64,000 nt of DNA from Leptolyngbya sp. (GTDB lineage: Bacteria; Cyanobacteriota; Cyanobacteriia; Phormidesmidales; Phormidesmidaceae): contig QBLT01000002.1 of NCBI GenBank assembly GCA_003249105.1, forward strand, positions 2,505-66,504, written 5' to 3'. The notes below the pieces were generated by a model that saw only the letters and a list, made by a program, of their open reading frames with translations, did not search any database and was not told the DNA's origin. The position numbers and the translations under genes are program-made. Positions 29,796 through 50,266 of the stretch are shown here, in pieces (within the stretch, counting starts at the first letter, position 1; each line of letters opens with the position of its first letter).

Positions 29796-30851
29796 ATGGA
29801 AATCACCTGTCAGCCTTTTACCGTTCACAAGCGCGTGCCGCTCACCATCAGTCGCGGCACCACGGCCCAATCGACTAACCTCTGGCTAAAGCTCAGCGCC
29901 GAGGGCATAGAAGGCTGGGGCGAAGCGGCTCCTTTTTCTATTGGCACCCATCGGCAAACCTTAGCGATGTTGCAGGCAGATATAGTTCGCCTACAGACAG
30001 CCATAGCCCCTTACCATCCGCTAGAACGCCAGGCCGTTGAGTCTGTGATCGGCGTGCTATCGCTCCATTCGGCCACCCGCGCTGCGCTTGATGTAGCCCT
30101 GTGGGACTGGTGCGGCAAGTTTGTCGGGCAGCCCATCTGGCGGCTGCTGGGGTTAGATTTAGGCTGCATTCAGCCGACATCGGTTACAGTCGGCATTTCA
30201 TCGCCCGAGGCCGCCCATCAGCGATCGCAGGATTGGCTACAGCAGACTTCCGCCCGCGCCCTTAAGGTGAAGCTCGGCAGCCCCCAGGGCATCGCAGCCG
30301 ATCAAGCCATGTTTCAGGCCGTCTACGACCACATCCCCGCCACCGTCAGCCTCAGCGTCGATGCCAACGGCGGCTGGAATCTAGAGGAGGCCCAACACAT
30401 GGCGGCTTGGCTGAGCGATCGCCGTGTCACCCACCTAGAGCAGCCCCTACCTGTTAGCCAGGACGTCGATTTGGCCAAGCTCAGACAAAACTCGCCGCTG
30501 CCAATTTTTGTCGATGAGAGCTGCTTCAGCAGCTCAGATATTCCTCGCCTAATGGATTCAGTCGATGGCATTAACATTAAGCTGATGAAAGCCGGAGGGC
30601 TAACCGAAGCCCTGCGGATGATTCACACCGCGCGGGCCTGCGGCCTTCAGGTGATGTTCGGCTGCTATTCCGACAGCAGCCTGGCCAATGGGGCCATGGT
30701 TCAGCTCTCGCCTCTAGCCGACTACCTCGACCTCGACAGCCACCTTAACCTGCGCGACGACCCCTTCACTGGCCTGACGCTGGTCGATGGCCGCCTACTT
30801 CCCTCTGCCCACCCTGGACTTGGACTTAGCCATGCACCTCAAGCCCGATAG
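29796..30851 (+). CDS. enolase-superfamily dipeptide epimerase (AEE/DgcA-like)
   Basis: LKVKLG, VDANGGW, LEQP, DES, INIKLMKAGG, DLDSHL. Confidence 0.88.
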   Translation: MEITCQPFTVHKRVPLTISRGTTAQSTNLWLKLSAEGIEGWGEAAPFSIGTHRQTLAMLQADIVRLQTAIAPYHPLERQAVESVIGVLSLHSATRAALDVALWDWCGKFVGQPIWRLLGLDLGCIQPTSVTVGISSPEAAHQRSQDWLQQTSARALKVKLGSPQGIAADQAMFQAVYDHIPATVSLSVDANGGWNLEEAQHMAAWLSDRRVTHLEQPLPVSQDVDLAKLRQNSPLPIFVDESCFSSSDIPRLMDSVDGINIKLMKAGGLTEALRMIHTARACGLQVMFGCYSDSSLANGAMVQLSPLADYLDLDSHLNLRDDPFTGLTLVDGRLLPSAHPGLGLSHAPQAR

Positions 30852-31875
30852 CCGCATTGCCCTGCTCATGCACGAGGGCACCCAGAGCACCATGGGTAAG
30901 ACGGGCATGGCCCTGCTGCGCTTTAGCCAATCGCCGATTGTGGCGGTGATTGATTACCAGGCGGCGGGACAATCGCTCCACGACCTCACCGGCATCGATA
31001 AGCCCATCCCTGTAGTCGCATCGCTTACCGAGGCTCTGACCTATACTCCCGATGTGCTGGCGATCGGCATTGCCCCCTCCGGGGGGAAACTGCCCGACAC
31101 CTGGTTTCAAGAAATTGAGCAGGCGGTCAAGGCCGGGCTCAGTATTGTCAATGGTCTCCACACACCAATGGCCAACCATCCAGCACTTCTGCCCTGGGTG
31201 AGAGACTACCAATGGATTTGGGACGTACGCCAAGAACCAGAGGGGCTTACCGTCGGGTCGGGTCAGGCCAGTCAGCTGGCCTGCAAGCGCATTTTGACCG
31301 TGGGTACCGATATGTCAGTGGGTAAGATGTCCGCCACCCTAGAACTGCATCGCGCCTGCCTTCGACAGGGATTACGCTCTAAGGTAATTGCCACCGGACA
31401 AACCAACCTCATGTTGGGGGACGACGGCGTCCCGTTAGATGCGATCCGAGTCGATTACGCCTCAGGGGCCGTCGAGCAACAGCTCCTGCGCTACGGCCCC
31501 GACCACGACTTCGTTTTCGTGGAAGGCCAGGGGTCGTTACTCAACCCGGCTTCAACGGCTACCCTACCTCTGCTGCGAGGCACCCAGCCTACCCATCTGG
31601 TGCTGGTGCACCGAGCTGGGCAAACCCATATTCAAAATTTTCCCACCGTCAAAATCCCCGACCTGCCCAGCGTTATAGCGCTGTACGAGCAGGTAGCGAC
31701 GGCGGCGGGGGCCTTTTATCCGGCTAAAGTGGTGGCGATCGCCCTCAACACCGGTCACCTCACCACAGCAGATGCCGAAGAGGCTATTCAGTCAGTCGAA
31801 GCCCAAACAAAGCTGCCCTGCGCAGACATCTTCCGCACAGGGGCCGACAAACTATTGGCACCTATCCTGGCCTAA
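30832..31875 (+). CDS. DUF1611 protein (DgcN-like N-acetyltransferase)
   Basis: VGTDMSVGKM, ATGQT, VEGQGSLLNP; overlaps the epimerase stop. Confidence 0.88.
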   Translation: MHLKPDSRIALLMHEGTQSTMGKTGMALLRFSQSPIVAVIDYQAAGQSLHDLTGIDKPIPVVASLTEALTYTPDVLAIGIAPSGGKLPDTWFQEIEQAVKAGLSIVNGLHTPMANHPALLPWVRDYQWIWDVRQEPEGLTVGSGQASQLACKRILTVGTDMSVGKMSATLELHRACLRQGLRSKVIATGQTNLMLGDDGVPLDAIRVDYASGAVEQQLLRYGPDHDFVFVEGQGSLLNPASTATLPLLRGTQPTHLVLVHRAGQTHIQNFPTVKIPDLPSVIALYEQVATAAGAFYPAKVVAIALNTGHLTTADAEEAIQSVEAQTKLPCADIFRTGADKLLAPILA

Positions 31876-31880
31876 CGAGG

Positions 31881-32105
31881 CTACTTCTTGCGAAGACGGT
31901 AGGTAATACGCCCCTTGGTGAGGTCGTAGGGAGTAAGCTCTACCTTGACGCGATCGCCTGGCAAAATCTTGATGTAGTTACGACGAATCTTCCCGGAAAT
32001 GTGGGCTAACACGTTAAACCCATTATCCAAATCGACCCGAAACATCGCGTTCGGCAACGATTCAGTAATGGTGCCCTCCATTTCAATTAAGTCTTGCTTA
32101 GACAA
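31881..32105 (-). CDS. infA: translation initiation factor IF-1
   Basis: [28 protein letters not shown]; TTG start. Confidence 0.98.
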
Positions 32106-32162
32106 GCTGAACTCTCCCTCAGTACACAATCAACAGGCTGAACTCTAGCATAGCCCCAGGAA

Positions 32163-32717
32163 CTACTCGATCACTAGGCGCTTTAGGTCAGCATGAACTA
32201 CGTCCATGGTTTGATTCCCATCCACCGACACCAGCTGCTGACGGCTGCGATAAAAATCAATCAGCGGCTCCGTCTGCTCCCGGTAGACCTGAAGCCGATT
32301 TAGAATCACCGACTCTTCATCGTCGTCACGCCCCCGCTGCAGCAGACGAGCGACAATCACATCGTCCTCAACGTCCAGGTTCACTACAAAATCAACCGGC
32401 TGCTCAATCTGCTCTAGCAGCTTCTGCAAAAACTCAGCCTGGGGCACATTGCGAGGAAAACCGTCCAGCAGCCAACCCTTTTGAGTATCGTCCTGACCCA
32501 ACCGCTCCTGAATCAAATCCAGGATCAGTTCGTCAGGCACCAGCTCTCCAGCACTCATGTACTGCTCCGCTTTTTGGCCTAGCTCACTACCCGCAGCTAC
32601 CGCTGACCGCAGAATATCCCCAGTAGAAATATGAGGAACCTCGCAGTCCTTAGCAAGCAGCAGAGCTTGGGTGCCCTTGCCCGCCCCCGGCGGACCCAGA
32701 AAAATAAGTCGAGTCAC
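32163..32717 (-). CDS. adk: adenylate kinase (short LID)
   Basis: [25 protein letters not shown]. Confidence 0.98.
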
Positions 32718-34030
32718 TACTGCTTCACCATCCCTTCGTAGCGTTGGGAGATTACGTAGGTCTGAATCTGCTTAGCAGTGTCAATGGCAACACCAACCAG
32801 AATCAGTAGCGAAGTGGCTCCAAACCCTCGAAAGGTTTGCACTCGCGTCAAACTCTCTACCGCACTGGGCACAACCGCTACCATACCCAGAAAAATAGCC
32901 CCAAGAAAGGTCAACCGGTTGAGAATGCGGCTGATATACTCGGTGGTCGCCTTACCGGGTCGAATGCCAGGGATGCTAGCTCCCATCTTTTTCAGGTTGC
33001 GCGATACATCGTCTGGGTTCATCACCAGAGATGAATAAAAGTAGCTAAAGAAGAGAATCAGAACTAGATACAGCGAAACGTAGAACAGGGACGTTGGATT
33101 CAGATAGTTGTTAACGAACTGGCTAAACCCAGGGTTAGTGATGTACTGGGTCAGCGAAATCGGCAGCACTAGCACCGCAGAGGCAAAAATGATCGGCATT
33201 ACTCCACCCTGGTTAAGCCGCAGGGGTAAGTAGTTGCTCTGCTCTAGATAGAGCTTGCGACCCACCTGGCGACGAGCGGAGATAATGGGAATGCGGCGAG
33301 TTCCTTCCTGCACAAAGACAATGCCCACAATCATTGCCAGGAAAGCGAGCATAAGGATAATAATGCCGCCCACTAGGCCGCGATCGCCGCTCTGAGCCAA
33401 TTCAATCGTTTGGCCTAGCGATCGGGGCAGGGTGGAAACGATGTTGAGGAAAATCAGTAGCGAAGCACCGTTGCCAATGCCGCGCTCAGTGATTAACTCA
33501 CCCACCCACATCACAAACATCGAGCCTGCTGTTAAGGCAATCACCGTCTGGGCTACAAATGCAGGCCCAGGAACTTCCGCAAACTGATACAGCAGGAAGG
33601 AAGACAGCAGCGTGCTCTGCAAAATCGCCCAGCCTAAGGCTACATAGCGAGTGATCTGAGAGATCTTACGCCGCCCAGCCTCCCCTTCATTTTTTTGCAG
33701 ATCCTCTAGCTGAGGCAGAGCCGCCGTCAGCAGCTGCATAATGATCGAGGCATTGATGAAGGGCAAAATACCTAGGGCAAAGATACCCAGAGCAGACAAG
33801 CCGCCGCCCACGAAGATATCTAAAAATCCTACAAAGCCAGCCAGACTGCCCGATTGAATAGAAGCAGCAAAAGCTTGGCGATCAATACCCGGGACCGGAA
33901 TAAAAATCCCTAACCTAACTAATACCAGCAGCCCTAGGGTCACCAGCAAACGGCTGCGCAGGCCAGCGGCCTGGGCCATTTGCATAAATGTTTCCTGCGC
34001 GCTTGGATTTTTACCCCGACTTACGACCAT
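32717..34030 (-). CDS. secY: preprotein translocase SecY
   Basis: [46 protein letters not shown]. Confidence 0.99.
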
Positions 34031-34140
34031 GCAACCATACCTCAGGCCTACGTTTAGCAATACATTGACGGCAATAAATAACCACAAAATCTATGGTTAC
34101 AGTCCATAGCCCTAGTCTAAGGGATGAACGAGTCATCTCG

Positions 34141-34587
34141 CTATGAGACGACTTCCCATGTACCGCCAGCCTGCTCAATTTTCTCCTTAGCGGACTTGGT
34201 AAAAGCCGCCGCTCTAACGTTTAGGGCCACATCAATTTCACCATGACCCAGCACCTTCAAAGGCCCATCATTGGTGGTCAATATGCCTGCTTCGAGCAAG
34301 GACTCAAGCGAGACGTCAGTCCCTGCTGCCAGGTCAGACAGCCCTTTAACGTTGATAATGGTATATTCCTTCTGATTGACCAGAGGGAAGTGCTTGAGCT
34401 TAGGGATGCGGCGGTAGAGGGGCATTTGGCCACCCTCAAAGCCAGGTCGAGTACCGCTACCCGAACGAGACTTTTGCCCTCGCATGCCAAAGCCACAGCT
34501 CGCGCCCTGGCCAGCAGAAATACCGCGACCGACGCGGCGACGGCGGCGCTTAGAGCCGACTTGTGGTTGTGCGTCGTTGATTCTCAT
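34141..34587 (-). CDS. rplO: 50S ribosomal protein L15
   Basis: [29 protein letters not shown]. Confidence 0.99.
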
Positions 34588-34623
34588 GGCTGAGGAAAAT
34601 AAAAACAGCGATACCGAAATGAA

Positions 34624-35145
34624 TTAAACATAGAGGCTTTCAACCGGGATGTCCCGCTCTTCAGCCACGTCAGCAAAGGTGCGTAGAGAAGCTAGGGCAT
34701 CAGCGGCAGCCCGGGCGTTGTTGAGGGGGTTATTGGAGCCCAGCTGCTTAGCCAGAACATTTCGTACCCCAGCCAATTCGAGCACTGTACGCACAGCACC
34801 ACCAGCAATTACCCCAGTACCCGGGGCAGCAGGGCGCATAAACACCTTGGCCCCACCGCCGATCCCGTTGGAGGGATGGGGAATGGAGTAAGAACGAGTC
34901 AGGGGCACATCTACTAGATGCTTTTTGCCATCGGCTACGCCTTTCTTGACCGCACCAATGACATCGCCTGCTTTACCAACACCAACGCCGACCTGGCCTT
35001 TCTCATTGCCAACAACCACAATGGCGCGGAAGCTAAGTTTCTTACCCCCCTTCACCACCTTGGTCACGCGACGAATTTGGACAACGCGTTCCTGCCAGTC
35101 AGTCTTCTTTTCTTTAGTACGCGCTTCTTTGCGACGGTTTGCCAT
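34624..35145 (-). CDS. rpsE: 30S ribosomal protein S5
   Basis: [18 protein letters not shown]; start MANRRKE. Confidence 0.99.
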
Positions 35146-35209
35146 GCCTTTCCCAGCCTTGTTTACATCAAGCAAAATTAGGTGCTTTCATCCAACAATC
35201 ACGCTTGGC

Positions 35210-35569
35210 CTAGAGGCTCAAGCCTGCTTCACGGGCTGCTTCAGCCAGAGCCGCTACCCGTCCGTGATACAACTTGCCGCCCCGGTCAAAAACGACTTGA
35301 GTGATACCAGCCTTTAGCGCGCGCTCAGCTACCAATTTGCCGACTACCGCAGCAGAGTCCTGAGTAGCTCCCGACTCATCCTTTAGAACATCTGGTTCAA
35401 CCGTTGAGGCTGCTACCAAGGTGTGGTGAGCAGTATCATCAATGATCTGGGCATAAATATGCTGATTTGAGCGAAACACGGCTAACCGAGGCCGCTCAGA
35501 GGTGCCAAACACGCGGCGGCGAATGCGGACGTGACGGCGACGGGTTAATTCTTTTCGACTTGCTTTCAT
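35210..35569 (-). CDS. rplR: 50S ribosomal protein L18
   Basis: [28 protein letters not shown]. Confidence 0.99.
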
Positions 35570-35572
35570 GGC

Positions 35573-36112
35573 TTATTTCTTCCCTGACTTACCGGCCTTA
35601 CGTCTGACCTGCTCACCGGCGTAGCGCACGCCTTTACCTTTGTAGGGTTCAGGAGGGCGGCTGGCCCGAATGCTAGCGGCAATGTTGCCTACTAGCTCTT
35701 TGTCAATGCCGCTGATGACGACATTGGTATTGTTCTCGACTACAAACTCAATACCAGCGGGGGGCTCGAATACAACTGGGTGACTATAGCCTAGGCTAAG
35801 GTTCAAGTTGCGGCCCTGTAGCTGTGCCCGGTAACCAATACCTTGAATCTCCAGGCGCTTTTGATAGCCGTTCGAGACTCCCTCAACCATATTAGCCACC
35901 AGGGTGCGACAGAGACCGTGACGCTCGCGGGCTAGCCGAGAATCATCTTTGCGGTTGACCAAAACGGTTTCCCCGTCCTGAACCACCATCACTCCGCTGG
36001 GCAAGGTACGAGACAGCTCGCCCTTGGGCCCTTTAACCTGAATGTCCTGACCGTCAATCGTGATTGACACTTTAGCCGGGACTGGGATTGGCCGCTTGCC
36101 AATACGTGACAT
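35573..36112 (-). CDS. rplF: 50S ribosomal protein L6
   Basis: [17 protein letters not shown]. Confidence 0.99.
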
Positions 36113-36193
36113 GATGCAAAACTCCTAAATCCTTAGCACTCGATAACGCCCTTGATGACTAGCTATCAGCTGACAGCATCGGCTATTCAGCTA

Positions 36194-36595
36194 TTACCAG
36201 ACATAGCAAAGCACTTCGCCACCAATACCCTGGCGACGGGCATCGCGGTCAGTCATGATGCCGCTAGAGGTGGAAACAATTGCAATTCCAATACCCCCCA
36301 ACACCCGAGGTAGCTCTTTTCGGTTGGAATACACGCGCAAACCGGGCTTGCTAACGCGAGTAAGGTTGCGAATGATGGGCTGACGAGTCTTGCCCTTGTA
36401 CTTGAGGGCGACCACCAGTTGAGGACGCTCTTCAACGGTGGTTTCGGAGTAGTCCGTGATAAACCCTTCTTCCTTAAGCACCTTTGCAATACTCCGGGTC
36501 ATCCGGGTAGAAGGAATACCTACGGTTTGGTGCCGCGCCAGGTTCGCATTTCTGATGCGAGTCAACATATCCGCAATTGTGTCGTTAGCAGCCAT
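36194..36595 (-). CDS. rpsH: 30S ribosomal protein S8
   Basis: [21 protein letters not shown]. Confidence 0.99.
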
Positions 36596-36621
36596 AGTTC
36601 TAGTACGCGTATAAACCTGTG

Positions 36622-37167
36622 TTAGTTGTCACGGAACGGCATACCCAATTCCTTGAGTAGCGCTCGGCCTTCTTCATCGGTGCTGGCGGTAGTCACAATA
36701 GTGATATCCATACCGCGAATTTGATCGATGCTGTCGTAGTCAATTTCAGGAAAAATCAACTGCTCACGCAGACCCAAGGTGTAGTTACCACGCCCGTCGA
36801 AGCTCTTGGGGCTGATGCCGCGAAAGTCGCGAATCCGGGGCAGGGTCAAGTTGATGAGGCGATTTAGAAAGGCGTACATGCGGTCAGAACGCAGGGTGAC
36901 CATGATCCCCACGGGCATGCCTTGACGAATTTTGAACCCTGCGATCGCCTTTTTGGCGCGGGTTACCACCGGACGTTGACCGGTGATTAAAGCCAGTTCG
37001 CTCAGAGAGGACTCCAGCGCTTTGGCATTCTGAGACGCTTCACCTAGCCCCCGGTTGACGGTCACCTTGACAACCTTGGGCACTTGATGAATGTTGTCGT
37101 ACTTAAACTGTTCCATCAGCTTAGGTACAACGGTGTCTTTGTATATAGTCTTTAACTGGTCGGTCAT
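36622..37167 (-). CDS. rplE: 50S ribosomal protein L5
   Basis: [20 protein letters not shown]. Confidence 0.99.
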
Positions 37168-37231
37168 GGGTCGTTTCTATCGCTTTCCTGGGCTTGGTCA
37201 GGACTAGAGGATGAGCGTAAGACTAAAAGCC

Positions 37232-37579
37232 TTAATCAATGATTTCGCCGGTCTTTTTCAGCATCCGTACCTTACGCCCGTCGTCGGTAAAGGTGTAGGC
37301 AACTCGGCTAGCCACCTTCTCCTTCTCGGAGTAAAGCATGACGTTAGAGCTGTGGATGGGGCCCTCTTGGGTCACGATTTGACCCGATTCGCCCTCTTGC
37401 TGAGGTTTAACGTGCTTAGTGCGAATGTTTACGCCCTGCACGACCACTTGGCTGGTTTTAGGGATAACGGTGAGCACTTCACCCACTTTGCCGCGATCGC
37501 GTCCAGCAATCACCTGAACGGTGTCTCCCTTCCGCACATGCACCTTGTGGCGCACGGCCTGCTTTGATGTTGTTGCCAT
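37232..37579 (-). CDS. rplX: 50S ribosomal protein L24
   Basis: [23 protein letters not shown]. Confidence 0.99.
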
Positions 37580-37944
37580 TAGAGAACCTCCGGTGCCAGC
37601 GACACAATCTTGGTAAAGTTTTTGTCGCGCAGCTCACGGGCTACTGGCCCAAACACGCGAGTGCCTTTGGGGTTGCCATCCTGGTTGATAATCACCGCAG
37701 CGTTATCGTCGAAACGAATACTCATACCGCTACTGCGGCGCAAGCCCTTCTTAGTACGAACAACCACAGCTCGGACAACATCCGACTTTTTCACGGCCAT
37801 GTTTGGCAGTGCATCTTTGACGACAGCAATGATGACATCGCCCACTCCGGCATAGCGGCGATTACCACCCAGTACGCGAATGCACATGAGCTTCCGGGCA
37901 CCGCTGTTGTCGGCCACATTTAAGTACGATTCCTGCTGAATCAC
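37579..37944 (-). CDS. rplN: 50S ribosomal protein L14
   Basis: [26 protein letters not shown]. Confidence 0.99.
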
Positions 37945-37953
37945 AATTCCCCC

Positions 37954-38205
37954 CTATGCGTCTGCCGCACGATTAACAATGTCAGCCACCGTCCAACGCT
38001 TGGTTCGGCTCAGGGGACGGGTTTCAAGAATTCGCACCTGATCGCCTTCCTGGCACGTATTCTCTTCGTCATGGGCCTTATAGCGCTTTGTCCGCACCAC
38101 AATCTTGCCGTACTTAGGATGGGAGGTGCGGCTTTCCACAGCAACCACGACGGTTTTATCCATCTTGTTGCTAACAACCATTCCCACGCGTTCTTTAACC
38201 GCCAT
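37954..38205 (-). CDS. rpsQ: 30S ribosomal protein S17
   Basis: [21 protein letters not shown]. Confidence 0.99.
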
Positions 38206-38221
38206 CTAATTCACCTATTCC

Positions 38222-38494
38222 CTACGCTGTTACCGATTCTGCTGTGGCAGCAGCCACAGCGGTGGCTTGGGCCTCTACCTCTGCCTCTAGGGCAATTAGC
38301 TGGCGCTCCCGCTGAACCGTCATAAGCTGAGCCAAACGATGACGGAGATGCTTAAACTGGTGCACTTGCTTGTCGAGTTGCCGAGTAGCTTTCTGAAACC
38401 GTAGTTGAAACAGCTCACGCTTGGTTTCAGCGATCGCAGTCAACAACTCTTCATCGCTTAAGCTGCGTGCCTCTTTAATCTTGGTCAATGCCAT
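38222..38494 (-). CDS. rpmC: 50S ribosomal protein L29
   Basis: [13 protein letters not shown]; start MALTKIKE; Ala-rich tail. Confidence 0.97.
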
Positions 38495-38498
38495 TGGT

Positions 38499-38918
38499 CT
38501 ACGCCTCCTTGCTTTCGCGAGCAATGAATTTAGTCTTAAACGGCAGCTTGAAGGCAGCCAGACGCATTGCTTCCCGAGCCGTGGCTTCAGGTACCCCAGC
38601 AATCTCAAAAACGATTCGACCGGGCTTTACCACAGCGACCCAAAACTCAGGGTTACCCTTACCAGAACCCATACGAGTTTCTGCGGGACGCATGGTCACA
38701 GGTTTATCTGGAAAGACGCGAATCCAGATTTTGCCGCCGCGCCTTACATAGCGGGTCATGGCACGACGGGCAGCCTCGATCTGACGAGCAGTTAGCCAGC
38801 AGGGTTCGGTTGCCTGAAGAGCAAAATCACCAAAATTGATGTCGCTACCCCGCTGAGCCATACCGCGCATACGCCCACGGTGCTGCTTGCGAAATTTAGT
38901 TCGTTTTGGACTTAGCAT
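38499..38918 (-). CDS. rplP: 50S ribosomal protein L16
   Basis: [22 protein letters not shown]. Confidence 0.99.
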
Positions 38919-38973
38919 GAATCGGCACTCTTGAAGTCACAGGTAAAATCAATCAAAGAAACGCGAGGGAGGC

Positions 38974-39708
38974 CTAATCGTCGTTAGAACGGTCTTCAAA
39001 CTGCTGGCGGCGACGGGGTTGACGACGGCGAGGTTGAGCATTGGGGGCAGCAGCCGGAGCTTCTTCTTGGCCAGGAATGATCTCCCCCTTAAAGATCCAA
39101 ACCTTGACACCCAAAATCCCATAGGTGGTTTGGGCCGTGGTGTAGGCGTAGTCAACATCAGCCCGCAGGGTATGGAGAGGTACCCGACCTTCCCGAGTCC
39201 ACTCAGTACGAGCGATTTCTGCACCATTCAAACGGCCGCTTACCTGAATTTTGATGCCCTCCACTCCGGCGCGCTGAGCACGTTGAATCGCTTGGCGTAC
39301 CACCCGACGGAAAGAAACCCGGCGCTCTAGCTGCTGAATAATGTACTCAGCAACAAGGGCAGCGTCTGCATCCACGCGGTTCACTTCCACCACATTGACG
39401 CGGATTTGGCGGTTGGAGTCCTTAAGCAGCTTTTGCACACCCATGCGCAAAGACTCAATCCCTGCTCCACCACGACCTACCACAACGCCAGGACGAGCCG
39501 TACGCAACTCAAGATCAATCTGATCAGCTTTGCGCTCAATGCGAATGTCGGCAATGCCAGCATTGTTCAGAGTCTTTTGAACATACTCGCGAATGCGATA
39601 GTCTTCCTGAAGCAAATCAGGGTAACGCATGCCCTCTGCAAACCAGCGAGAGCGGTGCTCTTGAACTATGCCAAGGCGAAACCCGGTTGGATGAATCTTG
39701 TGTCCCAC
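38974..39708 (-). CDS. rpsC: 30S ribosomal protein S3
   Basis: [29 protein letters not shown]. Confidence 0.99.
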
Positions 39709-39774
39709 GAACTAACCCTCTGGAATTTTGGTTTCTGAACAACTGGTGTTTGGACAATGGAATCAGTAGACAAG

Positions 39775-40131
39775 CTATTCAGCAGCCGGAGCCACAGCAA
39801 TAGTGATGTGGCAAGTTGGCTTGCGAATTTGGTAAGCCCGACCCTGGGCTCGAGGGCGAAACCGCTTCAGAGCTGGGCCTGCATCAGCAAATGCCTCGCT
39901 TACCACCAAACCCGCTGGGTCAAGACCATTGTTGTGCTCAGCGTTAGCCACAGCAGAACGCAACACCTTGATAATGGGTTCGCACGCTTTATAGGGCATA
40001 AACTCTAGGATGATTAGCGCATCCCGGTAGCTTTTACCGCGAATTTGGTCAAGCACCCGACGCACCTTACGGGGCGACATGCGCACGTAGCGGGCTACCG
40101 CCTTAACCTGCTCTGAGGTATCCACAGCCAT
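39775..40131 (-). CDS. rplV: 50S ribosomal protein L22
   Basis: [20 protein letters not shown]. Confidence 0.99.
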
Positions 40132-40155
40132 TTCTCCAGTTCCTCTACCTAATAC

Positions 40156-40434
40156 CTAACGACGAGCTTTTTTATCGGTCTTAGCGTGGCCACGAAAGGT
40201 TCGCGTGGGGGCAAATTCACCCAGCTTATGGCCTACCATCTGCTCAGTAACGTAGACCGGCACATGCTGGCGACCGTTATGCACCGCGATCGTGTGACCA
40301 ATCATCTGGGGCAAGATCGTCGATGCCCGCGACCAGGTTTTAATTACCTGCTTATCACCCTTGGCATTCAGAGCTTCGACTTTAGATAGAAGATGATCGG
40401 CCACAAACGGCCCTTTTTTTAACGAGCGAGACAT
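40156..40434 (-). CDS. rpsS: 30S ribosomal protein S19
   Basis: [19 protein letters not shown]. Confidence 0.99.
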
Positions 40435-40497
40435 GATTTTTCAGCCCCCATAGCAATCACAACAGCCACGATCAAGAAACAGCAGACAAATTAGTAA

Positions 40498-41361
40498 CTA
40501 AGCGTTACGACCGCCACGACCCCGCTTAGAAACCCGACGGCGACGACGCACAACGTATTTATCGCTATCTTTATTCTTCTTACGGGTTTTATAGCCTAAG
40601 GCTGGCTTGCCCCAAGGGGTCACAGGGCCAGAACGACCAATGGGAGCCCGCCCCTCACCACCACCGTGAGGGTGATCGACCGGGTTCATCACGCTACCGC
40701 GCACCTCGGGACGACGGCCCAACCAACGTTTGCGGCCAGCTTTACCAAGGCTGACGTTGCGGATGTCAGCGTTGCCGACTTGGCCAATGGTGGCGTAGCA
40801 CTCGCGGCGCACCATACGAACTTCCGTAGAGGGAAGCTTAAGGGTGACGTAGTCACCTTCTTTGGCCACAACCTGGGCACCAGTACCAGCAGAGCGCACC
40901 ATCTGCCCGCCCTTACCGGCCTGCATTTCAACGTTATGCACCGTGGTGCCAAGCGGAATCTTGTATAGCGGTAGAGCGTTGCCGATTTCAAGCGGTGCAT
41001 CGGGGCCAGCAACTACCGTTGAACCTACCGTTAACCCCGCAGGACAGAGAATATACCGCTTCTCACCATCTTCGTAATGAAGTAGGGAAATACGGGCGTT
41101 GCGGTTTGGGTCATATTCGATAGATGCGACCTTGGCGGGTATACCGAGTTTGTTGCGATGAAAATCGATCACGCGATACAAACGCTTGTGGCCGCCGCCC
41201 CGGTGGCGACAGGTAATTACCCCCCTGTTGTTACGCCCCTTGGGACGATGGGTGGAGCGAGTTAAAGACTTCTCAGGCTCGCTGCGGGTGATTTCGGCAA
41301 ACTCGGAGACAGTTCGCTCACGAGTACCAGGGGTATAGGGTCGATAGGAACGGATGCCCAT
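40498..41361 (-). CDS. rplB: 50S ribosomal protein L2
   Basis: [21 protein letters not shown]. Confidence 0.99.
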
Positions 41362-41423
41362 GGGAATACTTGCTGGCTACACGGCTAAGGTTGAAACAAT
41401 GAAAACCTAAACCCAGTGATCGT

Positions 41424-41729
41424 TTAGAGATCAGGGAAGAGGGGGATAGAGTCTCCAGCGGCCAGAGTGACCACGGAGCGCTTGTAGTGCGGACGATGCC
41501 CGACAAAGCGCCCCATCCGACGCTTTTTCTTAGGAGGGTTGTAGGTGTTGACCGATACAACCTTGACCTCAAACAGTTCCTCGATTGCCGCTTTAATCTG
41601 CAGCTTGTTGGCCCGAGGGTCAACCTCGAAGACGTACTGGTTGTTCTCCAGAAGGAGTGTAGCCTTTTCGGTAATCAGGGGCCGACGAATGAGATCAGCC
41701 AAAGATGGGGTATTGGCGGCGTTAATCAC
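41424..41729 (-). CDS. rplW: 50S ribosomal protein L23
   Basis: [19 protein letters not shown]. Confidence 0.98.
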
Positions 41730-42354
41730 TGTAAACCTCCTGAATAGCCTCTAGGGCAGGGGACGTAATAACAAGGTGGTCAGCATTCAGCAAATCGTGA
41801 ACGTTGAGATTGGCAGCAGTAATCAGTTTGACGTTCTCAATATTGCGGGCCGAGAGATAGACCAGTTCCTGTCGTTCGGCAATGATCAAGAGAATCTTGG
41901 CATTGGGATCGATACCCCAACGAGCAATGGCATCAAGCAGCTCACGGGTTTTGGGGCGAGAAAATTTATCCTCAAACCCCTCGACCACCACTAGATCGTC
42001 GACCCGACTCTGCAAGACAGTGCGTAGAGCTAATCGCCGCTCTTTGCGGTTCATTTTGACGCTGTAGTCGCGAGGCTTAGGACCAAAGATAACGCCACCG
42101 CCACGCCAGAGGGGAGAACGATTGGAACCAGCTCGGGCCCGACCGGTACCCTTTTGACGCCAAGGCTTGCGGCCACCGCCTCTGACCTCAGCGCGGGTTT
42201 TAGTAGAAACCGTGCCTTGACGGGCATTGTTCATCTGACGCACTAGAGCGCGGTGAACAATGTGAGAGGCAGACTCTTCCTTGGCAACCTGAAGATCTAA
42301 GGATGCCGTACCCGCCTCTTGGCCCTCCCAATTTTTTACGACGCACTCAACCAT
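41722..42354 (-). CDS. rplD: 50S ribosomal protein L4
   Basis: [19 protein letters not shown]. Confidence 0.99.
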
Positions 42355-42431
42355 TGTCTGAACCTATCTCTTAAAAAGCTTTGGATGCCCGAAAGTCAAA
42401 GACCTAAACCACTTACTTAATCCTGGAAGAA

Positions 42432-43067
42432 CTAGGCCTTCACCCATTGGGCTGGAGCAATGCTCAGCAAGCCACCGGGCTTGCCAGGAATAGCACCTTT
42501 AATCAGCAGGAGGTTGCGATCGCCATCTACTCGGATCACTTCCAACTTCCGAATAGTCACTCTGGCATTGCCCATTTGACCCGCCATCCGCTTGCCAGGA
42601 TAGACACGACCCGGAGTCGTACCTGCGCCAGTAGAACCGGGCAGACGATGGTTTTTAGAACCGTGGGCCATGGGGCCGCGACGGAAGTTATGACGCTTTT
42701 GGTAGCCCGCGAAGCCGCGACCCATGCTCTTGCCGGTGACATCCACTAGCTGACCCTGGGTGAAGGTTTCAGCGGTGACGGTCTGCCCCAGCTCAAAACC
42801 ATCGGCGGCATCAACCCGATATTCTTTCAGGTGACGCAGAGGAGCGCTGCTAGAGCGAGCCAGATGGCCCAACTCAGGCTTGTTTAGCTTCTTTTCGGTC
42901 ACTTCATCAAAACCTAGCTGGACAGCCGCATAGCCATCGGTATCTGAGGTCTTTATCTGAGTAACAACACAAGGACCGGCCTGCACCACCGTAACGGGGA
43001 TGGCATTGCCTGCCTCATCGAATACTTGGGTCATGCCCAGCTTTTTGCCGAGAATACCGACTGCCAC
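42432..43067 (-). CDS. rplC: 50S ribosomal protein L3
   Basis: [25 protein letters not shown]; GTG start. Confidence 0.99.
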
Positions 43068-43357
43068 AGTCCTGTCTCCCTACTAACACACTACGAAATG
43101 CGCAGGACTCCCCAAAAGGAGAGCTTTGCGCATCAACGACATCAACTTTTGAACACCCCAGACTGAAAAGCTCGCCGGGGTAAGCGTTGCCGGCCTAAAC
43201 CGGTGACTATTCAAAAGAAAATTGACTTGAGCTGACTACGGCTTACTCTGGAGCCAAAACCGCAAACACCTTAATGTTGGGGCATCAGAACAGTCAAATG
43301 CCAGGACTTGGGTAACCCGCTGGACTACTCAGTATCCTTTTTTGTCGGCGATTTACC

Positions 43358-43386
43358 ATAGTACACCCCTTGCCGGCGGATGTCTA
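43358..43386 (-). promoter_or_regulatory. sigma70-type promoter of the rplC operon
   Basis: On the minus strand TAGACA-N17-TACTAT, about 290 nt upstream of rplC. Confidence 0.7.
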
Positions 43387-43536
43387 TACCGATTTTCAAA
43401 AAAGTCGAAAACCTGCTGCTGTCACCCCTGCCCACGGGGGGTGAGCCCGGCAAAGGCTCTAGATTTGCTGGGTTTACTCTTCACTTGAACACAGTACAAT
43501 GACACCTGATAGATAGCCAATGGCCGAGGGTTGATT

Positions 43537-44004
43537 ATGGCGCTGCTGACAACGGGTAAGCCCTTTATGAAGGATTTGGAGAGTAACGGTGCGATCGCCG
43601 TTCGCATGCCCCTAGAGGGAGGGTTTGAAGGTCGCTACGAGCGCCGGTTAAAGGCTGCTGGTTACGAGACAATGAATCTCACGGCTCGTGGGTTGGGAGA
43701 CGTATCGTCTTATCTCACTGGAATCCATGGGGTACGCCCGCCCCACTTAGGCAAGAAAACCTTGGGCAGCGGTGCGGCGGTTGGCTACACTTACTTTATT
43801 CCGCCTATGCTCACGTACCGGCTAGACACTATGTCGGCTAAGGCTAAGGGCATGGTGCTGTGGCTGATTGAGGGGCATATTTTATCGCGCCAGGAGCTGG
43901 CCTATTTGGTTAGCCTGCCGACTATTGAGCCTCGGGTCAAGGTGGTGGTAGAGATGGGTGGCGATCGCGCCTTTAGCTGGAAGCCCTTGGCTAGCCTGAT
44001 TTAA
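43537..44004 (+). CDS. ndhN: NDH-1 complex subunit N
   Basis: PLEGGFEGRY, TARGLGD, GVRPPHLGK. Confidence 0.96.
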   Translation: MALLTTGKPFMKDLESNGAIAVRMPLEGGFEGRYERRLKAAGYETMNLTARGLGDVSSYLTGIHGVRPPHLGKKTLGSGAAVGYTYFIPPMLTYRLDTMSAKAKGMVLWLIEGHILSRQELAYLVSLPTIEPRVKVVVEMGGDRAFSWKPLASLI

Positions 44005-44069
44005 ATTCTGAAATGAGTCAGAAAGGCTGGTTGGCAAAAAGCTGGGGTTAACCCCGTCGGAATTTCCGC

Positions 44070-45398
44070 ATGGCTATTGGAATCGCTCCCGGAGCTGCAT
44101 CTGGGAGCCAACATCAAGAAGGCTCTTTGCCATTGCCCCACCGATCGCTACACATGGGGCAATGGGTAAAACTAATTTGCGGTGCCAGCTACCAGGACAT
44201 GCCAACGGTGCGGCGGTTGGTGATGCTCTATGCCTTAGCGGGAGTAGATTGCATCGACGTAGCAGCCGATGGGGCAGTGGTGTCCGCGGCCCGACAGGGT
44301 CTGGCAGATGCCGTGCGTTTGGCGAAGTATTTGAGTAACGGCGGAGCATCTGCGGAGAATCACAACCATCTAATTCCCGGTTTACCCTGGCTGATGGTGA
44401 GTCTCAATGACAGCGAAGACCCCCACTTTCGCAAAGCTCACTTCGATGCGGCCCTCTGCCCACCCGATTGCGATCGCCCCTGCGAAGCCATTTGCCCCAC
44501 CGCCGCCATTCAGTTTCAGGCTCCTAGCCAAGGGGGCGTGGCGGCGGACCTCTGCTACGGCTGCGGTCGCTGCATCACCGTTTGCCCGATAGCTAATATC
44601 GAAGCCCAGCCTTATATGGCTAGCCCAGAAGCCTTCTCTAGTGAGCATCTGGCCCACATCGACGCCGTAGAAATTCACACTCAAACTGGGCATCAAGCTC
44701 AGTTCGCGCAGCTCTGGCAACGGCTGCAAACCTGGCGGCCCCACCTCAAGCTCATCTCTATCAGCTGCCCCGACGACGACCAGGTAGTTCCGTATTTGTG
44801 GGATCTCTACGCCCTGATGGCACCGCTGGAGGTGCCCCTGATCTGGCAGACCGATGGCCGCCCCATGAGCGGTGACCTGGGCAAAGGCACTACCCACGCC
44901 GCCATTCGTCTGGCCCAAAAGATTCTTGACGCGGGGCCACCGGGCTATGTGCAACCCGCTGGCGGTACCAATGGCTACACTGTAGATAAGTTGCTCAATC
45001 TCGGTTTGGTCAATACAGCGTTTCCACGTCAGCCCAATGCGTCTCAGCCCAGTGCACAGCCTTGTGTTCGCCAAGCTGGGATGACCAACAGCGATACAAC
45101 TTTAGCCTCCAAAACCATTTCGGGCATTGCCTACGGCAGCTATGGGCGATCGCAGGTGCTGCCGCTGCTTGACGCCCTTGACCAAGAACTTCAACCCTGG
45201 TTAGGGAACGACTCCCTTGACCAGCGCACCATCGGTCAAAGCACTTCAGTCTCAAGCAGTGACAGCCTCGCCAAAACAATCGTTGCCCCCTGGCAGCGGC
45301 TAGACAGCAGTGCCCTGGGCCAAGGGTTAACCCTGGCCCGGCAGCTGGTAGGCCAACTCAAATCCCATAGACACTTTTTACCAACACGTTATGGTTAG
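44070..45398 (+). CDS. ldpA: circadian input Fe-S protein LdpA
   Basis: WVKLICGASYQD; two 4Fe-4S motifs (CPPDCDRPCEAICP, CYGCGRCITVCP); WQTDGRPMSGD. Start uncertain. Confidence 0.92.
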   Translation: MAIGIAPGAASGSQHQEGSLPLPHRSLHMGQWVKLICGASYQDMPTVRRLVMLYALAGVDCIDVAADGAVVSAARQGLADAVRLAKYLSNGGASAENHNHLIPGLPWLMVSLNDSEDPHFRKAHFDAALCPPDCDRPCEAICPTAAIQFQAPSQGGVAADLCYGCGRCITVCPIANIEAQPYMASPEAFSSEHLAHIDAVEIHTQTGHQAQFAQLWQRLQTWRPHLKLISISCPDDDQVVPYLWDLYALMAPLEVPLIWQTDGRPMSGDLGKGTTHAAIRLAQKILDAGPPGYVQPAGGTNGYTVDKLLNLGLVNTAFPRQPNASQPSAQPCVRQAGMTNSDTTLASKTISGIAYGSYGRSQVLPLLDALDQELQPWLGNDSLDQRTIGQSTSVSSSDSLAKTIVAPWQRLDSSALGQGLTLARQLVGQLKSHRHFLPTRYG

Positions 45399-47265
45399 CT
45401 ATAGCGACGACCGCTCGATGAGTGCCGGATCGAGCAGCAACGCCCCCGCCAACAACATTTCTGCCACTAATAACTTTGCCGTGGACTTTTTACCCACTGA
45501 ATCTGAAGGGACAGCGCAACACCAGTCTGCCCCTGACCAACACCTGCCCATTGATGACCTCGAGCAAATCCTCAGCATTCTGCCCCCGTCTATCCGTGCT
45601 CAGCTGCTACACCACCCCCAGCGCCAGAGCCTGATTGAAGTTGTTTTAGACCTGGGTCGCCTGCCCGAAGCAAGATTTTTTGGCAGTGTCGAGTACCTGT
45701 CTGAAGAGCCCGTCACCCATGCCGATCTAGACCACTGCATCAAACGGGTGGGTATCTTTGGCGGCGACAACCGGGCCGGCATTGAAAAAACCCTGCACCG
45801 CATCAGCGCCATTCGCAACCGCTCTGGGGAGGTGATTGGCCTCACCTGCCGCGTGGGGCGCGCCATTTTTGGCACCATCGGCATGATTCGGGATCTGGTA
45901 GAAACAGGCCGCTCCATTTTGATGCTAGGACGACCTGGTGTGGGTAAAACAACTGCCCTGCGCGAAATCGCCCGAGTGCTGGCCGACGACCTGCAAAAAC
46001 GGGTGGTGATTATCGACACATCTAATGAGATTGCTGGGGATGGCGACATTCCCCACCCGGCCATCGGTCGGGCCCGGCGCATGCAGGTAGCCCGCCCCGA
46101 AGAGCAACACCGGGTGATGATCGAGGCGGTGGAAAACCATATGCCCGAAGTGATTGTCATCGACGAGATTGGCACCGAGCTGGAAGCCCTGGCCGCTCGT
46201 ACCATCGCCGAGCGCGGGGTGCAGCTCGTGGGTACCGCCCACGGCAATCAGCTGGAAAATCTGATTAAAAACCCCACACTTTCAGACTTGATTGGTGGCA
46301 TTCAATCGGTAACCCTAGGGGATGAAGAAGCGCGTCGTCGGGGCAGCCAAAAAAGCGTGCTAGAGCGCAAGGCTCCCCCGACCTTTGACATCGCCGTGGA
46401 GATGCTAGAGCGACAGCGCTGGGCCATCCATGAGGATGTTACCGTTACGATTGATAACCTGCTGCGGGGGCGACAGCCGGGGCTACAGATTCGCACTGTA
46501 GATGAGAACCAGAAGGTGATCATCACCCACGAGCTACCGGGTTCAGGGCGAGAGGTCGCCAAGCCTTCGCGATCGGGCATGGGCTGGCGCGCAGCAGGGC
46601 AAATGGTGCCGCCAGCCCATGCCGCGATCGCCCAGCGCCCAACAGGCAACAGCAACAACGTTCGGCCCCTGGGTCAGGTCTACAGCCAAAAACCGACCAC
46701 TGACCCCATGTTTGCCCACCTGCTAGAGATGACCCCCGATGATGACATCGTCGGTCCTAATGGGGAAGACGCCATGCGCCTCTATCCCCACGGTCTCAGC
46801 CGTCACCAGATCGAGCGGGTAATTCAAACGCTGCATATGCCTGTAGTGATCACCAAGGATTTGGACAACGCCGATGCGGTGCTGGCGCTGCGATCGCACG
46901 CCAAGGCCCAGGCCAAGCTCAAGCACATGGCCCAGGGGCGGCAGATTCCTGTCCACTTGGTCAAGTCCAACAGCATTCCCCAAATTACCCGCGCCCTTCA
47001 GCGCCTACTGGATCTGGACGACAATCCAGCCGCCATCGATCTGGAGCTGTTTAGCCACAGCGGCGGTGACGATGAGCTAGAAGCCTTAGAAGAAGCTCGT
47101 TTAGCGGTTGAGCAGATTGTAATTCCCAAAGGCCAGCCAGTAGAATTATTGCCCCGCTCAGCCCACATCCGCAAGATGCAGCATGAGCTAGCCGAACATT
47201 ACCGACTCAAATCCCTCAGCTGCGGCGAAGAACCTAACCGACGGCTGCGCATTTATCCAGCCTGA
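45391..47265 (+). CDS. ycf45: Ycf45-like AAA ATPase with C-terminal R3H domain
   Basis: GRPGVGKTT, VIVIDEIG, GTAHG; R3H IRKMQHELAEHY. Confidence 0.88.
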   Translation: MVSYSDDRSMSAGSSSNAPANNISATNNFAVDFLPTESEGTAQHQSAPDQHLPIDDLEQILSILPPSIRAQLLHHPQRQSLIEVVLDLGRLPEARFFGSVEYLSEEPVTHADLDHCIKRVGIFGGDNRAGIEKTLHRISAIRNRSGEVIGLTCRVGRAIFGTIGMIRDLVETGRSILMLGRPGVGKTTALREIARVLADDLQKRVVIIDTSNEIAGDGDIPHPAIGRARRMQVARPEEQHRVMIEAVENHMPEVIVIDEIGTELEALAARTIAERGVQLVGTAHGNQLENLIKNPTLSDLIGGIQSVTLGDEEARRRGSQKSVLERKAPPTFDIAVEMLERQRWAIHEDVTVTIDNLLRGRQPGLQIRTVDENQKVIITHELPGSGREVAKPSRSGMGWRAAGQMVPPAHAAIAQRPTGNSNNVRPLGQVYSQKPTTDPMFAHLLEMTPDDDIVGPNGEDAMRLYPHGLSRHQIERVIQTLHMPVVITKDLDNADAVLALRSHAKAQAKLKHMAQGRQIPVHLVKSNSIPQITRALQRLLDLDDNPAAIDLELFSHSGGDDELEALEEARLAVEQIVIPKGQPVELLPRSAHIRKMQHELAEHYRLKSLSCGEEPNRRLRIYPA

Positions 47266-47416
47266 GACAGAGCGCCCTCAAGCAACCAGTGAATACTATG
47301 ACCACGGTGAGCTATAGAATAAAAACACCGAAATGACACCAGCGCAGCTTTAGCACGGGATCCACTGCCTGTTTTCCCTGGCCTGTCGTTTGACCTAACC
47401 TCTTTCGAAGAATCCT

Positions 47417-47818
47417 ATGAAATCTTTAATTTCTCGTCTCTTGGCCCTGGTCCTCGTGGCCGTTGTTGGCCTCACAGGGTGCAGCGCAGGCACTAGCGGC
47501 ATGCTCACTGGCGACTACCGTCAAGACACGCTGATGCTGGTAGATAGCCTCAGAACCTCCATCAACTTGCCTGACGACGATCCAGCTAAGGTAGAGGCCC
47601 AGGCTGAGGCCAAAGCTGTGATCAGCGATTTTGCCTCTCGCTATCGCCGGGATACTTCCGTAGCCAACCTCAGCTCGTTTACGACCATGCGCACGGCACT
47701 CAATGCGATCGCAGGTCACTACAGCAGCTACCCAAACCGTCCCCTGCCCGAAAAGCTCAAGACTCGCGTTGAGCAAGAACTGAAGCAGGTAGAATCCGCC
47801 CTCAAGCGCGGAGCTTAA
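47417..47818 (+). CDS. psb27: photosystem II assembly lipoprotein Psb27
   Basis: Lipobox LTGC; SFTTMRTALNAIAGHYSSYPNRPLP. Confidence 0.96.
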   Translation: MKSLISRLLALVLVAVVGLTGCSAGTSGMLTGDYRQDTLMLVDSLRTSINLPDDDPAKVEAQAEAKAVISDFASRYRRDTSVANLSSFTTMRTALNAIAGHYSSYPNRPLPEKLKTRVEQELKQVESALKRGA

Positions 47819-47864
47819 TGCTAAAAGCCATATACTTTCATCAAACTTTCTAGCAATTCTGAGC

Positions 47865-47893
47865 AAGAGGTCGTCCATGGACGGCCTCTTTTT
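47865..47893 (+). terminator. intrinsic terminator after psb27
   Basis: AAGAGGTCGTCC-at-GGACGGCCTCTTTTT. Confidence 0.8.
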
Positions 47894-47926
47894 GCTCTGG
47901 GCATAACCCCAAGGAGAAATATTTAT

Positions 47927-47955
47927 TTGACTGGTTGGCGTCAGTTTGCTAGCAT
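47927..47955 (+). promoter_or_regulatory. sigma70-type promoter for the rpmJ operon
   Basis: TTGACT-N17-TAGCAT, 30 nt upstream of rpmJ. Confidence 0.7.
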
Positions 47956-47985
47956 AGCAATTCTGTAGTGAAGTGCGAGTTGGAC

Positions 47986-48099
47986 ATGAAAGTCCGTGCG
48001 TCTGTGCGCAAGATGTGTGATAAGTGTCGTGTGATCCGCCGCCGTGGCCGGGTCATGGTGATTTGTTCTAACCCCAAGCATAAGCAACGACAGGGGTAA
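47986..48099 (+). CDS. rpmJ: 50S ribosomal protein L36 (Zn-binding form)
   Basis: Below the ORF-track cutoff; hand translation [37 protein letters not shown]. Confidence 0.99.
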
Positions 48100-48312
48100 T
48101 CGAGGTCTGGCAGGATGTTCACACTGTTGTGAACATCGCTCTAATATGCCAGATAGTGCTGAGTATACTGACTTAGAGCAACTGAATCTAAACATTCTGT
48201 TCGAGTTTTTGTATAAGGCTTTTGACGGTTTGGGCAGCAGCCCAACGTAGCAGACTGAGTAGCCGTAACTGGGCTGCATGGTTGAAACCATACACTGGGG
48301 GAATAGTTAAAG

Positions 48313-48696
48313 GTGGCACGGATAGCAGGCGTGGATTTGCCACGCGACAAACGAGTTGAAATTGGCCTGACCTATATCTACGGTATCGGCCCCACCCGTT
48401 CTAAGGAAATTCTCGCTAAAACCGGGGTCAATCCCGACGTGCGGGTTAAGGACTTAACCGATTCGGACGTAGCTAAGCTACGGGATTCCGTTGAGAGCGA
48501 CTACCAAGTAGAGGGCGATCTACGACGGTTGGAAAGCATGAACATCAAGCGATTGATGGACATCGGCTCCTACCGCGGACGGCGTCACCGCGCTGGCCTA
48601 CCAGTGCGCGGTCAGCGTACCCGAACCAACTCTCGCACCCGCCGTGGTGGTACCCGTCGCACAGTGGCTGGCAAGAAGAAGGCCCCACGCAAGTAA
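48313..48696 (+). CDS. rpsM: 30S ribosomal protein S13
   Basis: [30 protein letters not shown]. Confidence 0.99.
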
Positions 48697-48859
48697 AACC
48701 GCTTCGCCTCAGCCTCCAGTCCTGCGGGGGTTGGAGCAGAAAGCTCGCTAAGCTTTGTAGCGAGTTTTTCTGACTGTTTACCGGTGTTTGCTAATGTTAG
48801 TGGCCCACCGACAATCGTATTGACTCAAGTTTCCTTGAATTGAATTTAGTGACAACGCT

Positions 48860-49252
48860 ATGGCCAAACCGACTCGAAAGACTGGACCTCGTAAGAGTAA
48901 GAAGAACGTACCGAGCGGTGTCGCTCACATCCGTTCAACTTTCAACAACACCATTGTGACTATTACTGACCAGTCAGGGGAAGCAATTTCCTGGGCTTCA
49001 GCAGGCTCTAGTGGATTCAAGGGAGCAAAGAAAGGCACCCCCTTTGCCGCTCAAACAGCAGCCGATAGCGCTGCCCGACGAGCAATGGATCAAGGGATGC
49101 GGCAGATTGAAGTTATGGTGAGCGGCCCTGGGGCTGGTCGCGAAACCGCTATCCGTGCCTTACAGGGAGCGGGTTTAGAAATTACTCTTATCAGAGATGT
49201 TACTCCTATCCCCCACAACGGTTGTCGACCACCCAAGCGTCGTCGGGTTTAG
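48860..49252 (+). CDS. rpsK: 30S ribosomal protein S11
   Basis: [29 protein letters not shown]. Confidence 0.99.
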
Positions 49253-49318
49253 GTACTTATCAGTATCAGTGGCGCAGTTGGCGGGCAGGGTATCGCGAGG
49301 TTTAAGGGAGGCAGGATT

Positions 49319-50266
49319 GTGGCACAGTTTCATGTTGATTGCGTAGAGTCTGTCGTTGAAAACGACCAAAGTCAATACGGTCGATTTGTCATCGAGCCTC
49401 TAGAGCGTAGTCAGGGTACTACCGTAGGCAACTCGCTAAGGCGAGTATTGCTATCTAACCTAGAGGGTATTGCAATTACAGCTGTGAGAATTGCTGGGGC
49501 GACCCATGAGTTCTCAACCATCGTTGGTGTGCGGGAAGATGTTCTCGACATTCTTCTCAACATGAAGGAGATTGTCCTCAGAAGCTACACCAGCCAGCCC
49601 CAAATCGGTCGTCTTCTAGTTCAAGGACCGGCTCGGGTGACGGCAGGTCACTTTGAACTGCCGTCTGAGGTGGAAGTGGTCAATCCTGAGCAGTATGTAG
49701 CGACAGTGGCCGACGGCCATACGCTGGAGATGGAGTTTAGGATTGAGCGGGGTCAGGGCTATCGGGCCGTGGAACGGAGTAAAGACGATGTCACTGCGCT
49801 AGACTTTATCCAAATTGACTCGGTATTTATGCCGGTCAAAAAAGTAAATTATACCGTTGAAGAGGTTGTCGTTTCTGGATCCATGCAGCGCGATCAGCTG
49901 ATCATGGATATTTGGACAAATGGCAGTATCACGCCCCAGCAAGCGATGAGCCAGGCCGCCGACATTTTAGTGGGTCTGTTTATGCCCCTCAAGGATGTCA
50001 CCTTAGAGCCCAAGTTTGATGAAGAGGTTAAGGAAGAAGACCCCAATAACCAAATTCCCATCGAGGAGCTAAGGCTTTCGGTACGGGCCTACAACTGCCT
50101 GAAGCGGGCACAAATTAATTCTGTAGCCGACTTACTGGACTTCAGTCAAGAAGATCTTCTAGAGATCAAAAACTTCGGCCAGAAATCTGCTGAAGAGGTA
50201 ATTGAGGCTCTTCAAGAGCGTTTGGGTATCACCCTACCCCTTGAGAAGGCTTCTAAAACAGCCTGA
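49319..50266 (+). CDS. rpoA: RNA polymerase alpha subunit
   Basis: EPLERSQGTTVGNSLRRVLLS, LSVRAYNCLKRA, NFGQKS. Confidence 0.99.
   Translation: MAQFHVDCVESVVENDQSQYGRFVIEPLERSQGTTVGNSLRRVLLSNLEGIAITAVRIAGATHEFSTIVGVREDVLDILLNMKEIVLRSYTSQPQIGRLLVQGPARVTAGHFELPSEVEVVNPEQYVATVADGHTLEMEFRIERGQGYRAVERSKDDVTALDFIQIDSVFMPVKKVNYTVEEVVVSGSMQRDQLIMDIWTNGSITPQQAMSQAADILVGLFMPLKDVTLEPKFDEEVKEEDPNNQIPIEELRLSVRAYNCLKRAQINSVADLLDFSQEDLLEIKNFGQKSAEEVIEALQERLGITLPLEKASKTA

Follow-up and report, generated by a model that had tools for sequence, protein, structure and literature searches.

In the 64,000-nt stretch of cyanobacterial DNA analyzed here (the window), the conserved ribosomal protein (r-protein) gene cluster that comprises the S10, spc, and alpha operons is split between infA and rpmJ, and its two halves lie on opposite strands. 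Comparison with related genomes indicates that this order very probably arose by one ancient, fixed chromosomal inversion in the stem of the clade that carries it, after a basal genus (designated g30) had branched off. A single step would suffice, and the event was presumably neutral. We describe the gene order, its distribution, the phylogeny of its carriers, and the conservation of the promoter upstream of rpmJ.

Gene identities were assigned from an open reading frame (ORF) map combined with NCBIfam and Pfam profile searches. The infA gene (minus strand, 31881) and rpmJ (plus strand, 47986) are ~16 kb apart in opposite orientations, and infA, rpmJ, and rpsM are not contiguous. A first-pass annotation, made from the sequence alone, had proposed the split, the strands of the two halves, and the presence of ndhN-ldpA-ycf45-psb27 between them; the ORF map and profiles confirmed all three. 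The gene set from rplC to rpmE is complete and both halves retain their conserved internal order. All 20 proteins of the rplO-rplC r-protein block were found again in relatives by tblastn. The features that define the two halves and their junctions are as follows.

29757-30851, plus strand: DgcA-like enolase-superfamily gene, the upstream neighbor of the DUF1611/DgcN-like gene
30787-31875, plus strand: DUF1611/DgcN-like gene, the left flank (Pfam DUF1611_N and DUF1611; NCBIfam NF041892 below cutoff), convergent with infA
31876-31880, no strand: junction 1, the 5 bp from the stop of the DgcN-like gene to the stop of infA, read from the sequence
31881-32129, minus strand: infA (TIGR00008, above cutoff)
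32163-32717, minus strand: adk (NF002700, above cutoff)
32717-34087, minus strand: secY (TIGR00967, above cutoff); infA-adk-secY is the distal end of the S10-spc block
34141-43067, minus strand: rplO through rplC, the r-protein genes of the spc and S10 portions, from the ORF list
42432-43067, minus strand: rplC (TIGR03625)
43531-44004, plus strand: ndhN (Pfam NdhN), divergent from rplC
44070-45398, plus strand: ldpA (NCBIfam LdpA, NF045992)
45391-47265, plus strand: gene for a ycf45-like AAA/R3H protein (AAA and R3H domains)
47417-47818, plus strand: psb27 (TIGR03044, 180 bits), the last gene of the inverted segment
47986-48099, plus strand: rpmJ (NCBIfam TIGR01022)
47986-54121, plus strand: rpmJ-rpsM-rpsK-rpoA-rplQ-truA-rplM-rpsI-rpmE-prfA (NCBIfam)

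The true rpmJ start is the ATG at 47986, because TIGR01022 aligns from residue 7 onward in the ORF that opens with GTG. No inverted repeats, insertion sequence (IS), or mobile element linking junctions 1 and 2 were found in the window, in agreement with the earlier impression that neither junction carries an IS or repeat. Breakpoint repeats are expected to be missing after an old event and are not required for inversion.

The window comes from a 5.08-Mb metagenome-assembled genome (MAG) of 412 contigs, a circumstance that would favor a chimeric join or a mis-oriented contig as the source of the split. In a Psb27 scan, a locus from 'Phormidium sp. VAR_61_metabat_6' was 100% identical, and further relatives came from many Nodosilinea strains and MAGs, Nodosilinea nodulosa PCC 7104, Shackletoniella, and Tildeniella; by these matches, the window's genome is a member of Nodosilinea as GTDB defines that genus. 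The infA, rpsM, and rplC genes were then located in 36 Nodosilinea genomes. The window's own aside, at least 17 assemblies had rpsM 5-6 kb from a divergent rplC and infA ~16 kb from rpsM, all on one contig, and 4 further genomes showed the rplC/rpsM half of the arrangement. In none of the 36 genomes was infA beside rpsM. Maps built with tblastn showed the order rplC(-) ndhN ldpA ycf45 psb27 rpmJ rpsM ... prfA recurring in named loci, including those of N. nodulosa PCC 7104 and LEGE/FACHB strains. Identical junctions occur in dozens of independent assemblies, from isolates as well as MAGs and including single-contig and closed or near-closed genomes. The mis-assembly that the first-pass annotation had allowed for is therefore excluded without recourse to reads, and we regard the chance of an assembly artefact as negligible.

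The GTDB order to which the genome belongs consists of one family, represented by 18 genera among the 151 genomes sampled, and the positions of the same three marker genes were surveyed in 33 representatives. The window order was found in 12 further genera (g27, g28, g29, g31, g32, g33, g34, g37, g38, g39, g41, and g42), of which g34 includes Leptolyngbya sp. PCC 6406 and g42 includes filamentous cyanobacterium CCP5. In two more (g26 and g36) the blocks are apart, yet both derived junctions survive: the dgcA-dgcN pair convergent with infA, and psb27 followed by rpmJ on the same strand. The junction of the DUF1611 gene with infA was also identified in PCC 7104, Shackletoniella, CCP5, a Trichocoleus MAG, g26, and g36, and the psb27-rpmJ adjacency was found across the family. 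Besides being fixed in Nodosilinea, the split is thus fixed in no fewer than 14 further genera among those sampled from the family. It is not peculiar to this genome or species, and the first-pass annotation had named such a wide distribution as what would refute its novelty.

One genus of the family, g30, has the canonical order. Both of its genomes (loci L095 and L096) carry ycf45(-) ldpA(-) ndhN(-) rplC(+) ... secY adk infA rpmJ rpsM rpsK rpoA. Outside the family, rplC...infA-rpsM is contiguous in the canonical manner in 15 of the 24 cyanobacterial families sampled; ndhN lies divergently upstream of rplC in 7 of these 15, and ndhN-ldpA-ycf45 is present in 4 of the 7. A tree was inferred with IQ-TREE from 23 concatenated cluster proteins (4009 columns, LG+F+G4). 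In it, the other genera sampled from the family together make up the sister group of g30, and the genera with the derived junctions form one clade with 100% ultrafast bootstrap support. Both new junctions therefore co-occur in one monophyletic group, and its sister group g30 and the outgroups keep the old order. Relative to L095, L096, and the outgroups, the inverted segment of the window is internally collinear with the ancestral order and reversed with respect to its flank. The position of g30 as sister to a fully supported split clade indicates one ancient inversion. The ancestral order would have been ycf45, ldpA, and ndhN on one strand, divergent from rplC ... secY-adk-infA, which in turn ran directly into rpmJ-rpsM-rpsK-rpoA ... 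prfA. The flipped segment would have had infA at one end and, on the far side of ycf45, psb27 at the other; as a result, infA would adjoin the DUF1611 gene and psb27 would adjoin rpmJ. The prediction that flipping this interval restores the canonical order exactly was borne out by g30 and the outgroups for every gene except psb27.

That exception introduces several observations that weigh against a single inversion. The pre-inversion left junction was not found in g30 or in the outgroups examined. In g30, psb27 is located on a different contig, after chlP, and the DUF1611 gene lies elsewhere. When the ORFs beyond ycf45 in the 15 canonical outgroups and g30 were compared with the whole G000 genome, none mapped to the left flank of the window, and both g30 contigs end 157-834 bp past ycf45 (L095:1-834; L096:1-157). 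With the left junction unseen, a single step requires an adjacency of ycf45 and psb27 in the stem lineage that was not observed. The tree, moreover, was built from the rearranged cluster's own genes with five outgroup families only. The lineages are too diverged for the missing old left junction to count strongly against inversion, and the ends of the g30 contigs just past ycf45 suggest a repeat or mobile element at the expected old left breakpoint. The prfA side offers no help: the SbcD-like/orf281 flank of prfA is kept in g28, g31, and g34 and is absent from g30, which makes the right flank uninformative.

These gaps leave some room, although we consider it unlikely, for a history in several steps: the left breakpoint of an inversion would have fallen immediately past ycf45, with psb27 and the DUF1611 gene pair relocated before or after, or, as variants of the same idea, there would have been two nested inversions or an inverted transposition. 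In its favor, psb27 is not beside ycf45 and the DUF1611 gene is beside neither in g30 and every outgroup examined, and the region is prone to rearrangement, with blocks scattered again in g26, g36, and a Nodosilinea subclade (G035, G003, and G033). Against it, a single inversion needs fewer events, the two new junctions are present together throughout the clade, where no intermediate state was found, and the stem branch is long enough for an earlier ycf45-psb27 adjacency to have arisen. We therefore retain the single inversion as the preferred explanation.

The polarity of the change could also be reversed, with the split order ancestral to the family and g30 having regained the canonical order by re-inversion or by acquisition of a foreign cluster. 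An inversion between the same spacers can in principle revert, and g30 is on a long branch. However, outgroup families have precisely the order seen in g30, down to the ycf45-ldpA-ndhN genes upstream of rplC; the r-proteins of g30 form a sister branch to the family instead of grouping with a different one; and g30 is without both derived junctions and without any trace of psb27 at rpmJ. Such a reversion is highly improbable.

Further rearrangement and the surroundings of psb27 were noted in passing. The small-genome Nodosilinea subclade has been rearranged again (G035, which is closed genome CP089923, with G003 and G033). In the re-rearranged loci, which comprise L073-L075 of G035 and L097-L102 of G154 and G123 in g26/g36, the rplC..infA, ndhN..psb27, and rpmJ..prfA blocks are scattered far apart. 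In g30, chlP (geranylgeranyl reductase, TIGR02028) is directly 5' of psb27 (L107:8231-10100; L108). Among the loci examined this adjacency was confined to g30, and the psb27 loci of other outgroups were without chlP, ycf45, or the DUF1611 gene.

The interval between psb27 and rpmJ contains two elements that the first-pass annotation had placed there, and both are present at the positions given.

47865-47890, plus strand: intrinsic-terminator-like hairpin past psb27 (11 pairs, then a T-run)
47927-47955, plus strand: predicted rpmJ promoter TTGACT-N17-TAGCAT with a TG extension, followed by N8 and a conserved TGTAG, to 47968

The predicted transcription start site (TSS) is at ~47962-47965. The 120-nt regions preceding rpmJ were aligned for 61 loci, and 57 of them share a signature: TTGACn or a close variant, a spacer of 17-18 nt, TAnnAT, N8, and TGTAG; in the matching loci, the -10 ends 29-43 nt ahead of the ATG. 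The signature is present in every split genus, at a distance of 30-37 nt from the rpmJ ATG, and the promoter stays with rpmJ in all of the secondarily scattered loci. It is also found in the infA-rpmJ spacer of G051, G044, G058, and G060, which have the canonical order, as well as in the independently split G059; g30 keeps the -10 and CGTAG. Since unsplit relatives carry the signature, the predicted promoter is older than the inversion and moved with rpmJ, with the breakpoint placed just upstream of its -35. This overturns the suggestion that rpmJ now has a promoter as a consequence of the rearrangement, a point for which internal promoters in unsplit relatives had been the proposed check. The promoter is presumably active in this organism.

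The predicted promoter, sigma-70-type and conserved across lineages, lies directly upstream of rpmJ, as expected of an autonomous rpl36-rpl31 unit, and the window's rpmJ-rpmE genes correspond to that unit in Synechocystis, with prfA following. Transcriptomic data for Synechocystis PCC 6803 divide the region into rpl3-rpl15, secY-adk, infA, and rpl36-rpl31 units, the last being TU833 (PMC6037674). Northern blotting with an rpoA probe detected an abundant ~4.7-kb transcript, and transcripts of ~16 kb were rare (PMC6037674). The promoter in unsplit relatives and the separate rpl36-rpl31 unit of Synechocystis together argue that the breakpoint fell at an existing operon boundary and caused little uncoupling. 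The proposal that the inversion uncoupled rpoA/S13/S11 from the L3-SecY-IF1 block is therefore largely moot, and by this analysis the inversion would have removed at most rare read-through transcripts. The right-hand breakpoint would lie upstream of the -35 element in a sigma-70-type promoter that already existed and would drive rpmJ-rpsM-rpsK-rpoA-rplQ-truA-rplM-rpsI-rpmE. No transcription unit would have been cut, and the alpha-type operon would have kept its own promoter and leader; their retention is probably why the rearrangement was tolerated and is still fixed.

The sequence downstream of the promoter is conserved in its own right. TGTAG, or CGTAG in g30, lies exactly 8 nt past the -10 (7 nt in g28) and is conserved in distant families (window 47950-47985; L126-L130, L076, L095, and L096); it could be a TSS/discriminator mark or a regulatory site. 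The ~30-nt rpmJ leader (AGCAATTCTGTAGTGAAGTGCGAGTTGGACATG) is nearly invariant within Nodosilinea. A more ambitious proposal, which we hold to be rather doubtful, takes the -10, N8, TGTAG, and ~25-nt leader jointly as a cyanobacteria-wide control element that makes the rpoA operon autonomous; such an element could act as a discriminator for growth-rate or stringent control, or as an autoregulatory site. The psb27-rpmJ junction might also add read-through into rpoA that is linked to light or to photosystem II repair.

Two other intergenic regions in the window have unusual features. The rpmJ-rpsM spacer (48100-48312) is 213 nt here and 49-336 nt across the family. It opens with a strong hairpin (~48113-48140) lacking a T-run, contains a second promoter-like site at 48118-48147, and shows a folding z of -2.65; it matches nothing in Rfam and may be a processing or attenuation element. 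At junction 1, the convergent DUF1611 gene and infA are separated by 5 bp, too little for a terminator; the corresponding distance is 5 to ~385 bp in relatives. The two transcripts probably overlap. An Rfam scan of the window returned one tRNA only and no known r-protein leader. One further feature lies beyond the alpha-type half.

54237-56409: SbcD/Mre11-like nuclease gene and a convergent 281-aa ORF, 3' of prfA

The same spacer has been broken elsewhere. The infA-rpmJ spacer is interrupted in 5 of the 24 other families sampled (G039, G040, G043, G050, and G059), as it is in the window. These loci differ from the window in having other new neighbors and no psb27 upstream of rpmJ, which identifies them as separate events. 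The pattern is consistent with the infA-rpmJ spacer being a permissive cut site. If the proposed control element were real, autonomy of the rpoA operon would account for the independent breakage of this spacer in no fewer than six lineages of cyanobacteria.

The canonical rpl3-rpl31 cluster, as in Synechocystis PCC 6803 and Synechococcus PCC 6301/7942, shares with the window its gene content, the internal order of both halves, the divergence of ndhN from rplC, and an internal promoter before rpl36. In the window, by contrast, the infA-rpmJ link is missing, and the S10-spc half and ndhN-ldpA-ycf45-psb27 form a segment that is flipped with respect to the alpha half. The E. coli-type spc operon ends with rpmJ, and the cut in the window falls between infA and rpmJ, not between E. 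coli-type operons. Breaks in the conserved concatenation of r-protein operons have been documented in other bacterial classes (PMC8046335). The change in the window is of the same kind, a broken concatenation between the operons of the cluster, and here both transcription units are intact; it differs from those cases in its phylum and in having no transposon or duplicate at the junctions. A literature search found no description of this cyanobacterial inversion. The order is nevertheless already visible in public genomes, such as those of PCC 7104 and PCC 6406. It adds a case to a type of event that is already on record; the event is old and family-wide and reveals no new mechanism.

The two junctions, DUF1611 gene-infA and psb27-rpmJ, are confined to the fully supported clade, as the first-pass annotation had anticipated in calling the arrangement a possible lineage marker. 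They provide a clean rare-genomic-change marker, with the basal genus on one side and, on the other, the remainder of the family that holds Nodosilinea, PCC 6406, and their kin. Such a marker can help with the classification of thin filamentous cyanobacteria, which is still unsettled, and with assigning MAG contigs to bins. The inversion is also a natural experiment in which the S10-spc and rpoA halves are separable at the rpl36 promoter without visible cost, in agreement with the Synechocystis transcripts. The finding supports the operon architecture inferred in Synechocystis and would be unsurprising to the specialist.

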